Shown in pieces: positions 20,943 through 36,058 of a stretch of DNA of 40,589 nt. Position 1 is the stretch's first letter. Every line of letters starts with the position of its first letter. The DNA is from a virus (Duplodnaviria; Heunggongvirae; Uroviricota; Caudoviricetes), in IMG/VR virus record IMGVR_UViG_2718217867_000004, positions 1 to 40,589 of that record. The stretch is one strand, 5' to 3'. The notes beneath the pieces are model-generated. The model ran no database searches. It was given only the letters and a program-made list of their open reading frames with translations, and was not told the origin of the DNA. A program made the translations under genes and the position numbers.

Positions 20943-21653
20943 ATTCAGATTTGATATGTATGGGACGTGGAGCGAATACAACAAAGCCCGTCAGAACAGG
21001 CCTCAAAAAAAAGCCAGCTCTGGGGAGGCTGGCAGGAATGAAAAATGACTCTCGAGATTATTCATCACAAAACGGATTACTTTGCGCTGAACAGAATGCT
21101 CCTTCATCGTATATTTCTCAACTGGAGAGACTCATTTTCAGATTTTGTTATCTGTCATATTGACAGTCCCCACTTCTCCGGGGTAGTGAAGTAAGTGGCG
21201 TTTGCTTCCTGTAAATACCCGAGGGTTATCCATGATCTCTTGTATAAGGCATTCCTCAGTGGACTAATTTCGGAGTTATCATCCCGTTCAATTTCATCCA
21301 GGATCCCCTACTAAATAAGTTCACCATTCTTCAGGTGGCAGTTTCTTTCAGCCAGCCGTGCACTCAACAGCATATTCTTGTCGGACTCAGAATAACTCCT
21401 GCAAATGCAACAATGATGGCCGTCGCCCCAATAACCTTGTGCTGCCCGCATCTGTAAAAAGCGAAGGCCCCAAATTACCAGAATAAAACTGAGCAGATAT
21501 CCGACCTTCGTTACCGCATTGACTTCATTGTCTCATACACCAGGAGCAGCGAATTGCAAAGGATGAAGCACGCCCCATGAAGATTCTCCCAAAAACTATA
21601 ATTGTAAAAACCAAAGTAGCGGAAGCGAGCACTTGTAACCCCGAACTTTGAAT

Positions 21654-22032: not shown

Positions 22033-22107
<75 letters not shown>

Positions 22108-22110
22108 CAT

Positions 22111-22186
<76 letters not shown>

Positions 22187-22352
22187 CATTGGTTCCTCAG
22201 GTGTGGATGAGATGCCCGGATACATAAATTACCCTCCCTTGGAACCGACGAAGAATAATAATGAATTCCGCTCCTGTTTCAATACAAACAATGTCAGGTA
22301 TTTAAAACATAATTATACAATATTATAAAAATTAAAAAGTTCGCAAAAAAAG

Positions 22353-23399
22353 TTAACTATTGTTTCTTACTTCATCAACCGTTTGATTAAACCTATCCGT
22401 TTCCAGCTCTACACCAATAGCTCTACGTTCCAGATAGAGCGCAGCCTTTATAGTCGCCCCCGATCCCATAAAAAAGTCTGCAACCAGTTCCCCCGGACGA
22501 CTGCTGGCTGTAATTATCTGCCGCAACATATCTGCTGGCTTCTCACACGGATGTTTACCCGGATAATACTGCACAGGTTTGTGCGTCCAGACATCCGTAT
22601 AAGGAACGGCAGCTGATACGGAAAAATAACGCCGCAAAGATTTATACTCTTCCAGCAGGCTGACATATTGCCGGTTCAGTTCGCTGTATGTGCTGACCAG
22701 ATGGTGGTGTGGCTTTTCCAGTTCTCCGCGTTGATGTTTTTCTGCTGCAACACGCGCAAACAACGCCTGCAGCTTTCTGTAATCAGCTTCGTTCGGTAAC
22801 TGCCACTGGCTGGCACCAAACCAGTGCGAAGCCATGTTTTTCTTTCCGGTGGCTTCCGCTATCTGTTTCGGCGTTATCCCCAGTGATTCACGCGCATCAC
22901 GAAAGTAAGAAATCAGCGGAGCCATGACATGCTGTTTAAGCTCGCGCCCCTTTGCCACATAGCCATCATTTTTTGGCCGATATGGCCCCTGGTAATGTTC
23001 AGCAAACAGTATGTGCTCTGTTGCCGGGAAATATGCCCTCAGGCTTTCCTTCCTGCACCCGTTCCAGCGTCCGGACGGCTTCGCCCAGATGATATGGTTA
23101 AGCACGTTGAAATGTTCACGCAACATGATCTCGATATCAGATGCCAGACGATGCCCACAGAACAGATAAAGACTTCCGGCGGGCTTCAGTACCCGCCAGA
23201 ACTGCGCCAGACACTGGTCCAGCCACTTCAGGTAATCATCGTCACCCTTCCACTGGTTATCCCAGCCCTCGGGCTTCACTTTAAAGTATGGCGGGTCTGT
23301 GACTATCAAATCGACAGAGTTTTCCGGTAAGGTCTGGATAAATCCCAGGCAATCAGCGTTGATTAACTCACAACTGGATATTTTTACAGTGTTAACCAT
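22353..23399 (-). CDS. DNA methyltransferase (N6-adenine/N4-cytosine, beta class), orphan
   Basis: 348 aa; N-terminal DPPY motif (VTDPPYF) and C-terminal FxGxG motif (FFMGSGAT); no adjacent restriction endonuclease gene. Confidence 0.9.
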   Translation of the reverse strand: MVNTVKISSCELINADCLGFIQTLPENSVDLIVTDPPYFKVKPEGWDNQWKGDDDYLKWLDQCLAQFWRVLKPAGSLYLFCGHRLASDIEIMLREHFNVLNHIIWAKPSGRWNGCRKESLRAYFPATEHILFAEHYQGPYRPKNDGYVAKGRELKQHVMAPLISYFRDARESLGITPKQIAEATGKKNMASHWFGASQWQLPNEADYRKLQALFARVAAEKHQRGELEKPHHHLVSTYSELNRQYVSLLEEYKSLRRYFSVSAAVPYTDVWTHKPVQYYPGKHPCEKPADMLRQIITASSRPGELVADFFMGSGATIKAALYLERRAIGVELETDRFNQTVDEVRNNS

Positions 23400-23620
23400 A
23401 GATCAATAAGCACTTCTCTGATAGGCTCATTCCGCTTTTGCGCAAAGCAGATGGGCCTGAGGTTTGCTTGTGACCCCAACGCATGAGCAGATGGCTGGCA
23501 GGTGCCGCTAACACCCACCAGCCGCCCATTACCACAAATAAAAAAGCCTTCACTGCGGAAGGCGTCTGTAACAACCGAACTGATAATCAGCCAGGCCCGC
23601 CATAACAAGCTGGGTCAGTA

Positions 23621-23740
23621 TTAGCGCTCGCGTGAAAGGTAAGTATTCTGCGCAATCTCCCCGACGGTCGCCGGTTCGGTGACGCTTAATTCATTAAACA
23701 CAACTCTGGCGGTTTCGGTCATATCCTGCTGTTTTAGCAT
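23621..23740 (-). CDS. Small hypothetical protein (39 aa)
   Basis: Start at MLKQQDM with a weak AAGGGA SD; the longer track ORF needs a GTG start. Confidence 0.25.
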   Translation of the reverse strand: MLKQQDMTETARVVFNELSVTEPATVGEIAQNTYLSRER

Positions 23741-23861
23741 GTCTTTTTCCCTTTTCTGGTTAACGTGACATACCAATAACTCATGTCGAAAAAGCCAGCA
23801 AGCAGAAAGACCAGTATTAATAACCACAGCACATTTAACGCACTGCGCTACTTTGCGAGCA

Positions 23862-23885
23862 CAAAAAACCCGCTCAGAGGCGGGT
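23862..23885 (-). terminator. Rho-independent terminator downstream of the CPBP gene
   Basis: Minus-strand hairpin CCCGCCTCTGAGCGGG followed by T6. Confidence 0.6.
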
Positions 23886-24025
23886 TCAGGCTATGCAGTG
23901 AAATAACCACTCTTAAAAGCATACATGATTTTTTACGTACGTAAATACTTTGCCGTGCATATTTCTCATGCAAATGTCACATCCTGCTATTTTTCAGTGT
24001 TATAAATTTAAGGCCATAGAAAAAA

Positions 24026-24850
24026 TCAATTATGTTTTAAGAATGGATAGGTAAAGAATAACAAGTGACACAGATTCAGACCAAAATGGAAAAGGGTTGC
24101 CACCCACAAGCGCCCACTCCACATCCATGACAATCCATACACAACACCAGATAACGTGGCAAATAATACAAGTAAAGCACCACCTGAATAGTGAAAAAGA
24201 CCAAACAACAAAGACGCCACAATTAACGCAATCAATGGAGACGTTACTTCTGATAGCCGTGATTGAATATACCCTCTAAATAATGATTCCTCTGCCAGAG
24301 ACACAAAAAACAAATTAGCCAATATAAACTCTGGCAACCACTCAGGAAAATGAATCTCTGGCTTTAACCCACCAAAAAAAACAGCCCAAAAAAGGATAAG
24401 AGGAACAGAGAGCAACAGAGCCCCCCATTTCCACAAAGACACTTCTGATTTCACTTCTTTTTTAAACAAAGAAGCTGTACACAGGACTAACAAAAATGGC
24501 ACCAGCGCTTTATCAAAATTAAAATACATTGTATAGGGAGTGCTTTGAGGTCCGACAGTAACAGACTTTAGCACTACAGGATTGTGAAACCCTGGCCATA
24601 AATGGAAAGATAATGCTATGGCTGATAAAACTATGCCAGCTTCATATATGGATTTAGCCCAGGCGTTATATTTCCAGTTGAACTTCAAAATAATAAAAAA
24701 AACGATTGTAGCAACAAAAAACAACACAGGCCAATCAATAATATCATTAAGCACAGCCAGGACAACAGACACCGTCAACAATGAAAAAGCCACTACCTTA
24801 TGCCAACTGAGAGTTGACAGTGACAGTGCTAACACAATCCACATAAACAC
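24026..24850 (-). CDS. CPBP family intramembrane metalloprotease (CAAX protease / Abi family)
   Basis: 274 aa polytopic membrane protein with EExxxR (LAEESLFRGY), FxxxH (FGLFHYS) and a second His motif (LFHFGLN); strong AAGGAG SD; markedly low GC; first gene downstream of Q. Confidence 0.85.
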   Translation of the reverse strand: MFMWIVLALSLSTLSWHKVVAFSLLTVSVVLAVLNDIIDWPVLFFVATIVFFIILKFNWKYNAWAKSIYEAGIVLSAIALSFHLWPGFHNPVVLKSVTVGPQSTPYTMYFNFDKALVPFLLVLCTASLFKKEVKSEVSLWKWGALLLSVPLILFWAVFFGGLKPEIHFPEWLPEFILANLFFVSLAEESLFRGYIQSRLSEVTSPLIALIVASLLFGLFHYSGGALLVLFATLSGVVYGLSWMWSGRLWVATLFHFGLNLCHLLFFTYPFLKHN

Positions 24851-24994
24851 TCCTTTTATTTAATGATGAAGATTGATTATCAATATTTTCAATTCACCTG
24901 GCAACATTTTGTTTACTTTCCATAAAATTCACGACCACAAAATAAACACATTGATTATAAACATAGGAAACATAACCATAGTCACTATATATCC

Positions 24995-25369
24995 CTACCG
25001 CATATCCATATCTAACCTGACATTCAGAGCCATAAGCATTCCTTCAATAATACCTTCTGCTTTATAAAGTCTTTTACCAATAAGCCCATCAGAACATCTA
25101 TGCTTACGTGCAAGAGCCATAAATGTCATTCCACCTACGTAATAATCCACCAACAAATTGTGCAAATACTGATTATTCTTGTTTAATCGTGCCATACAGC
25201 CACAAATTATCATGGCGTCATCATCAGAACACTGAGGACGTGATTTCACTTTAGCCGGGATTAATCCTTTAAAACCAGCAGCTATCGAGGGCCATGTTAC
25301 ATCTTCATGATTATTTGCTGCCCATGCTCCCCACCGCTCCATAACCAGCTGAATATCACGCAACATCAT
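24995..25369 (-). CDS. Late-gene antiterminator Q (933W-type Q family)
   Basis: 124 aa; closely matches the Stx-phage 933W Q sequence as I recall it (RDIQ...[16 protein letters not shown]...IICGCMARL...GMLMAL). Confidence 0.9.
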
Positions 25370-27678: not shown

Positions 27679-27834
27679 TTACTCCTCAGGTTCGTAAGCT
27701 GTGAAGACAGCGACCTCCGTCTGGCCGGTTCGGATTCGTACCTCGCAGAGGTCTTTCCTCGTTACCAGTGCCGTCACTATGACGGTTAAACAGATGACGA
27801 TCAGGGCGATTAACATCGCCTTTTGCTGCTTCAT
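27679..27834 (-). CDS. hokD: Hok/Gef family type I toxin (HokD/RelF-like)
   Basis: 51 aa MKQQKAMLIALIVICLTVIVTALVTRKDLCEVRIRTGQTEVAVFTAYEPEE: single TM helix plus the conserved Hok motif; matches the HokD sequence as I recall it. Confidence 0.9.
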   Translation of the reverse strand: MKQQKAMLIALIVICLTVIVTALVTRKDLCEVRIRTGQTEVAVFTAYEPEE

Positions 27835-27892
27835 AGCCTGCTTCTCCTTGCCTTTCGGCACGTAAGAGGCTAATCTTCAGTTGTCGAGACAT
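27686..27892 (-). CDS. mok-like overlapping reading frame (modulator of killing)
   Basis: 68-codon ORF starting upstream of hok and overlapping it in another frame, as in hok/mok/sok loci. Confidence 0.45.
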   Translation of the reverse strand: MSRQLKISLLRAERQGEAGYEAAKGDVNRPDRHLFNRHSDGTGNEERPLRGTNPNRPDGGRCLHSLRT

Positions 27893-28264
27893 AAGACTGG
27901 CCTCACTTCGATTTATAGTCGGGTGGGGCTTTTCTCTATCTGCCGTTGGTGTTCATGCCCGAGGCAGATAGCCTCAAGCACCCGCAGCAATTCTACTTAA
28001 CTCCCATCACCTCGCCAATATGAAATCAATCAGAAAGGTGATCCATGAGAACAATAACAAGACAATAAATTGCCATTACAGCCACAATAGCCAGCGCGCA
28101 TTTCAGAACCAGCACGATAACCTCCCACATTTAGCGTGCACGTGCATGATAAATATGTGTCCGTGTTATCACAGCAGCAATAGAAGATAAGATTTCGTTA
28201 TGTCGATATTTAACTCTGTGCGTTAAGCGCCCTGCTTATGTACACAAGGCGCGTTCTTAATGCC

Positions 28265-36000: not shown

Positions 36001-36058
36001 TTTTCTGGTGACGTTTGGCGGTATCAGTTTTACTCCGTGACTGCTCTGCCGCCCTTTT
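36001..36058 (+). ncRNA. dicF: DicF small RNA
   Basis: TTTCTGGTGACGTTTGGCGGTATCAGTTTTACTCCGTGACTGCTCTGCCGCCCTTTTT matches the DicF sequence as I recall it, with its intrinsic terminator; lies upstream of dicB. Confidence 0.85.

Follow-up and report, generated by a model that had tools for sequence, protein, structure and literature searches.

The window analysed here, a stretch of 40,589 nucleotides, is made up of a prophage of Escherichia coli strain C8, a cow isolate, and its integration site adjoins ompW. The minus strand carries the early-right and late genes, namely the antiterminator gene Q, a gene encoding a CPBP-family protease, and the lysis and structural genes; all the features described below are on this strand and are given in window coordinates. 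Q (24995-25369, 124 aa) belongs to the Q21/Q933W family: it matches PF06530 at 171 bits and the Q21 structures 6P18 and 6JNX at E 5e-8, and it is 77% identical to the Q protein of 933W by BLASTP. It is devoid of a C-terminal tail of about 24 aa, which in 933W overlaps pR'. RusA and DUF968 genes, with a GC content of 50-54%, are found just upstream of Q. Directly downstream of Q lies an open reading frame at 24026-24850, in agreement with the sequence-only reading, which had described the protease gene as the first one after Q.

This gene almost certainly starts at the ATG at 24844 and encodes a protein of 272 aa (24026-24844), because a Shine-Dalgarno sequence, AAGGAG, read from the sequence at 24850-24855, is located 5 nt before this codon, all 32 aligned homologues open with Met-Trp and RefSeq uses the same start. 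The Shine-Dalgarno sequence claimed earlier is thus present; it overlaps the GTG from which translation had been assumed to start, and the length of 274 aa given at that time has to be revised. The assignment to the CPBP family of Rce1-like glutamic intramembrane endopeptidases is borne out by profile search, as PF02517 matches residues 171-260 of the 274-aa reading at 72.1 bits (E 4.7e-20), for a curated cut-off of 22.4 bits. The EExxxR, FxxxH and H motifs are also intact as reported: in the 272-aa numbering, they correspond to E185-E186-x3-R190, F214-x3-H218 and H253-x3-N257, which are invariant in the 32 homologues. The catalytic codons are at 24292-24287 (E185/E186), 24277-24275 (R190), 24193-24191 (H218), 24088-24086 (H253) and 24076-24074 (N257), and the protein displays a polytopic helical CPBP fold like that of Rce1 and SpdC. 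These intact, invariant motifs, together with the purifying selection described below, suggest that it is an active inner-membrane protease.

Within its family, the protein is distant from the members that have been solved or named. It is only 15-17% identical to MmRce1 (4CAD) and S. aureus SpdC/LyrA (6U0O), and differs from these solved members by four extra N-terminal helices and by a loop motif, PGFxN...S..(Y/F)xMYxNxDKAxxPF, which is invariant in and specific to an enterobacterial subfamily. A PDB sequence search with the protease gives no match. Its scores are far below all the cut-offs of the named NCBIfam CPBP subfamilies (myxosortases, MroQ and ABC-permease fusions), the best NCBIfam match of its domain being a CPBP domain fused to an ABC permease. 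In PHROGs, it is included in family 13291, the function of which is unknown there. A literature search (CPBP or CAAX combined with prophage, O157 or antiterminator, and the WP accession) retrieves no paper on this gene or its subfamily, and the gene goes unmentioned in the comparative paper on pR' (PMC6266700).

The position of the gene relative to the late promoter is given by comparison with 933W, in which, according to the annotation, pR' overlaps the last part of Q, and qut and a G+C-rich hairpin come next in that order. The Q gene of 933W aligns to window positions 25365-25004, and its annotated pR'/qut/hairpin to 23945-23863 (72.9% identity, E 9e-6), so that the distance between the Q and pR' blocks is 62 bp in 933W vs 1058 bp in the window. 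Compared to 933W, a low-GC cassette of ~1.06 kb (23946-25003), composed of a spacer, a putative promoter designated P1, the CPBP gene and its 3' region, is inserted between the end of Q and pR'. As the 933W pR' homologue is found downstream of the gene, the alignment shows that the cassette is located between Q and pR', upstream of the latter, and places it outside the predicted Q-antiterminated late operon and away from the stx position. We had also considered P1 as pR' itself, with a ATTGAAAAT/ATTGATAAT direct repeat as the Q-binding element and the cargo lying between pR' and tR', but the alignment of the annotated 933W pR' to a site downstream of the gene led us to drop this idea.

The pR' homologue (23918-23945) contains a -10 hexamer, TATGCT (23923-23918), with a 16-nt spacer counted from the TTTACG hexamer, and its -35 is overlapped by a palindrome, TTTACGTACGTAAA (23945-23932). 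It is followed by a late-transcript leader (23860-23915), conserved in phiP27, 933W and O157, which comprises a conserved block, TAAGAGTGGTTA (23915-23904), at about the place of the annotated 933W qut, and a G+C-rich hairpin with a T-run (23887-23866) detected by the terminator scan and kept, with base changes, in phiP27, 933W and O157. It is this hairpin that had been described as the gene's own intrinsic terminator. It starts 139 nt downstream of the CPBP stop codon, inside the late-promoter leader, and is present in phiP27 and 933W, both of which are devoid of the CPBP gene; it is therefore the hairpin of the pR' leader and not that of the cassette. The terminator scan reveals no terminator-like hairpin from the CPBP stop (24025) to 23888, and no terminator-like site between Q and the CPBP gene either. 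Further downstream, the scan detects a second terminator-like hairpin (23546-23563) between a small ORF and a methylase gene.

The palindrome is a probable, candidate Q-binding element. Its 933W counterpart, TTTACGATCGTAAA, differs only by a central TA/AT swap, and the same palindrome, together with the TAAGAGTG block, is found after a CPBP allele of 60% identity in L020, a Shigella prophage with a Q protein that is 80% identical. In phiP27, whose Q is only 48% identical, the -10, the leader and the hairpin are kept and a different palindrome is found at the same place, as expected if the palindrome binds Q. In O157:H7 strains containing both prophages, each Q might act on the late promoter of the other, including the one driving stx2, in view of the near-identical palindromes (23932-23945 in the window vs 1167-1180 in 933W, L024) and of the 77% identity between both Q proteins.

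The PR' promoter of Stx phages is constitutively active, as mapped experimentally, and a functional tR' is located 258 nt after PR' in Sp5/933W (PMC7547250). The pR' leader of the window (23860-23945) sits where Stx phages have the precursor of StxS (PMC7547250), and Rfam gives a sub-threshold match (21.7 bits, E 0.13) at 23863-23940 to isrK, a small RNA of Gifsy-1 encoded just after antQ. StxS and IsrK are small RNAs produced between pR' and tR', whereas the CPBP cassette is protein-coding, with an StxS/IsrK-like leader just downstream. In lysogens, this leader may give rise to a short RNA, and it would lie at the 3' end of any CPBP mRNA.

The gene had been assigned to the slot in which Stx phages carry stx, and its genomic context was here misread. 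In 933W and phiP27, stx is downstream of pR'/tR' and Q-dependent, whereas the CPBP cassette is upstream of pR' and without a terminator of its own; the gene (24026-24844) is thus not located, as stx is, downstream of pR' (23945-23918) and its terminator and upstream of the lysis genes. Furthermore, two Stx1d prophages display the order Q, CPBP, pR', stx1dAB and holin, so that CPBP and stx coexist in what are, as judged from this order, different slots. The closest Stx phage in the neighbourhood comparison, phiP27, displays the order Q, L22 (T5orf172/GIY-YIG), leader hairpin, small TrmB-like ORF, methylase, two tRNAs, stx2eAB and holins. The window has the same backbone, with CPBP replacing L22 and about 1.2 kb of unannotated DNA at the place of stx2e. 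This common backbone (22034-23399), assigned with PF01555, ARAGORN and the phiP27 map, comprises the DNA methyltransferase (22353-23399), tRNA-Thr (22112-22187) and tRNA-Gly (22034-22108), and it is only after these tRNAs that stx2e comes in phiP27. The first ORF after pR' is a small "TrmB-family" ORF (23553-23740; phrog_331), which is frameshifted: phiP27 L23 matches it in two frames by tblastn and RefSeq labels it "frameshifted". It is also frameshifted in the O157 prophage, and intact in phiP27 and others.

No stxA or stxB remnant is detected in the window. The stretch of about 690 bp between the tRNA genes and the holins (20954-21642), at the stx2e place of phiP27, contains neither an annotated feature nor a convincing ORF and is not similar to stx, TerB or the prophages used for comparison; only 6 of 5426 complete E. 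coli genomes contain it, and a strong terminator-like hairpin (21680-21661) adjoins it. Elsewhere in the window, two typical elements of Qin/Rac-like prophages give full-score Rfam matches, at 27829-27983 and 36003-36054: sok, which is the hokD antitoxin, and, beside dicB, DicF RNA.

The interval between Q and pR' seems to constitute a separate slot for cargo. Other cargo is observed there: phiP27 L22 (L002 8564-9793) encodes a T5orf172/GIY-YIG coiled-coil protein, and three further prophage loci (L005 3113-4668, L006 and L007) contain an ORF6N protein, which may be accompanied by an OB-fold protein. The L22 and ORF6N genes occupy the same interval as CPBP, from a Q21-family Q to the conserved pR' leader, and their proteins are unrelated to it; the slot is common, the function is not. 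In Sakai Sp17, a different 247-aa "membrane protein" without a Pfam match (ECs_3500, L028 16899-17642) is encoded first after a lambda-type Q, which is a second case of a membrane protein directly after Q. The CPBP cassette resembles the morons and lysogenic-conversion genes of lambdoid phages, as it is an extra gene with a promoter-like site, inserted in the general stx region between elements that are adjacent in related phages; its lower G+C content is shared with the adjacent Q gene. It differs from a moron by the lack of its own terminator, as the first hairpin belongs to the pR' leader.

The sequence-only reading had also noted a GC content lower than that of the rest of the prophage and had taken it as a sign of recent acquisition. 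The dip is real: GC is 0.354-0.384 across 24001-25000 vs 0.43-0.55 in the flanks, that of the CPBP coding sequence is 38.9%, the lowest-GC stretch of 819 bp in the entire window falls here, and the cassette (23946-24994) has a GC content of 36.8% vs about 48% in the early region. It is, however, not restricted to the protease gene, as the Q gene is equally AT-rich (40.8%), with a GC3 of 0.352 vs 0.374 for CPBP. The low-GC block therefore consists of Q and CPBP, and not of CPBP alone.

Nor does the distribution of the gene point to a recent event. Of 5426 complete E. coli genomes, 572 have it at 95-100% identity and in full length (coverage of 80% or more), and 572 of the 616 genomes containing this group of Q alleles carry it. 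According to record names, the carriers, among those listed, are mostly O157:H7, O26, O103, O111, O121 and O145. More divergent alleles, either 86-88% identical (Stx1d prophages and E. albertii) or 60-62% identical (E. coli and Shigella), occupy the same position behind a Q of the Q21 family. Comparison of the alleles gives a dN/dS of 0.12-0.30, indicative of purifying selection. Recent acquisition is thus unsupported, given this spread, the diverged alleles in place, the selection and the GC3 of Q, which is even lower than that of CPBP; the association of Q with CPBP appears to be old. The gene is not carried by the Sakai prophages Sp10, Sp11, Sp12 and Sp17. A tblastn search against 50,697 deposited phage genomes gives no match, so the carriers may mostly be cryptic prophages. 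Many of them do look degraded, and the gene is intact in them.

The same data bear on whether the gene could be a functionless passenger, retained only by its linkage to the essential Q gene. Its tight linkage to one group of Q alleles (572 of 616 genomes) would be accounted for in this way, and no phenotype is known. Purifying selection argues against it, as does the preservation of the full-length frame, of the catalytic residues and of the loop motif in alleles down to 56-60% identity, and the neighbouring small ORF has decayed by frameshift when the CPBP gene has not. We therefore consider a mere passenger to be highly improbable.

Full-length relatives of the protease (45-56% identity, 269-276 aa, same motifs) are widespread in Enterobacterales. 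Within 4 kb of them, neither Q, RusA, DUF968 nor holin genes are found in 80 species-representative loci (L029-L108). The identifiable neighbour clusters shared among these 80 loci are housekeeping genes: modF is found upstream in 39-48 of them, with modE, and gpmA, aroG or pnuC downstream in many. This modE-modF-CPBP-gal/gpmA-aroG-pnuC locus is encountered in Hafnia, Providencia, Photorhabdus, Xenorhabdus, Serratia, Enterobacter and others, and encodes a protein of the same length with the same motifs; these relatives are not phage-borne, whereas the window copy belongs to a group that lambdoid prophages of E. coli, Shigella and E. albertii carry beside Q. As judged from this gene order, the relatives represent a chromosomal gene with a conserved place, absent from E. 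coli and captured by lambdoid phages. Its absence from the E. coli chromosome is deduced from blastn, which finds a match of any kind in only 574 of 5426 genomes; the matches whose surroundings have been examined lie in prophages.

The phage-borne copies cluster in a neighbour-joining tree without bootstrap, in which P0009, the sister of the copy of a Q-lambda-type phage, is nevertheless chromosomal. It is hence not clear that the gene was captured by phages a single time, and this could have happened once or twice. An operon link between modF and CPBP was also considered and is weak, as the spacers are of 150-300 nt or more and a 5-nt gap in Hafnia results from an over-extended ORF call. To our knowledge, no membrane partner is known for ModF, an ABC ATPase.

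In Gram-positive bacteria, certain CPBP proteins provide immunity to bacteriocins, and it had been proposed, rightly as a conjecture, that the window protein could be linked to abortive infection or bacteriocin immunity. It would then be a recently acquired moron in a Q-controlled toxin slot, encoding a protease for abortive infection, exclusion or immunity. Besides the Gram-positive precedent and database names such as "CAAX amino terminal protease self-immunity", such a role would be in line with the position of the gene, first after Q in the variable interval between Q and lysis genes where many lysogenic-conversion genes sit, and with the other occupants of the slot, which are nuclease-like or antirepressor-like accessory genes. 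However, a search of PADLOC-DB v2 (5027 models, E <= 0.01) gives no family match for the protease, and no bacteriocin or toxin gene is found beside CPBP, either in the window, where its neighbours are Q and pR', or in the neighbour clusters shared among the 80 related loci. In addition, the relatives hold a conserved chromosomal position, unlike genes of defence islands, the association with Q is old, the gene coexists with stx1d and, lying upstream of pR', it is not Q-dependent here. All these results give no support to the proposed link, and we regard a defence or immunity role as quite improbable.

A putative sigma-70-like promoter, P1, is located in the spacer between Q and CPBP (24876-24904). 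It consists of TTGCCA, 17 nt and GATAAT, with 10 out of 12 matches to the consensus, and its pattern is kept in four alleles. Among alleles that have diverged by 4-15%, no change is seen in the -10 or in the part of the spacer next to it, and the -35 reads TTGCCA, TTGCCT or TTGTCA, while the other spacer sequence varies. Promoter-like matches are not enriched in this AT-rich region as a whole (12 found vs 8.9 expected in shuffled sequence). This conservation is consistent with P1 being the cassette's own promoter.

[quoted passage not shown] The protease would be produced just before lysis, either along with Q or, in other phages, as the product of the first late gene, and would process or remove a protein of the inner membrane; it could, for instance, block superinfection, disarm a host factor or tune the timing of holin. 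As no terminator separates Q from the gene, transcripts of the early operon should include it. Phage L021, of the Q-lambda type, has a homologue with 56% identity that comes after a pR'-like promoter and a terminator, directly before holin, that is, at the stx-type position; this homologue has no recognisable promoter of its own and looks like a Q-dependent late gene. L022 displays the same arrangement, and in E. albertii, Q and CPBP are followed by holin, lysozyme and Rz1 within 0.8 kb. The position beside Q thus recurs with two unrelated Q families. On the other hand, the interval between Q and lysis genes is a general hot spot for cargo, so that position says little, and the conserved promoter-like site precedes the gene in the window. 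The chromosomal relatives, moreover, work in phage-free cells, and the gene is kept intact in many degraded-looking carrier prophages. A specific lytic function is, in our opinion, unlikely.

Taken together, our results point most likely to an accessory envelope protease with its own promoter. More precisely, we favour, with modest confidence, the gene being an accessory, moron-type gene of a lambdoid prophage, a phage-borne copy of the chromosomal CPBP protease of Enterobacterales, expressed from its own promoter and endowed with an envelope function. In the lysogen, the putative conserved sigma-70-type promoter P1 would transcribe the gene and, during lytic growth, transcription would be increased by read-through from the Q-containing early operon, as no terminator separates Q from the gene. 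Transcripts of the cassette would extend across pR' and stop either at the leader hairpin or at the terminator that follows. The predicted inner-membrane protease would cleave a peptide or protein of the envelope, as its chromosomal relatives presumably do, and E. coli lysogens might thereby gain an envelope function that is missing from their chromosome.

A more specific possibility is that the prophage copy restores an envelope protease that most other Enterobacterales encode chromosomally, and acts as a lysogenic-conversion factor, constitutively expressed from its own promoter upstream of pR'. This appears rather improbable to us; in that case, the modified processing of envelope proteins might raise fitness, or resistance to phages or toxins, in cattle-associated STEC (O157:H7, O26, O103, O111, O121 and O145), and the CPBP mRNA would carry an StxS/IsrK-like pR' leader as its 3' end.

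Finally, the assignment to the CPBP family holds, and the gene is both real and conserved; it is an ordinary accessory gene, belonging to a known, annotated family, and not a new kind of system. The reading of the late region is nevertheless corrected, as stx-type cargo starts only after 23945-23860, and in the map of the late control region, Q is followed by a cargo slot, then by pR' and its leader, with the stx-type slot coming last; the Q-pR' interval is thereby recognised as a second place for cargo. This intact, selected gene is carried by roughly a tenth of the complete E. coli genomes, mainly, by strain name, in Shiga-toxin-producing serotypes. The protease, whose chromosomal relatives are equally unstudied, is a candidate fitness factor.
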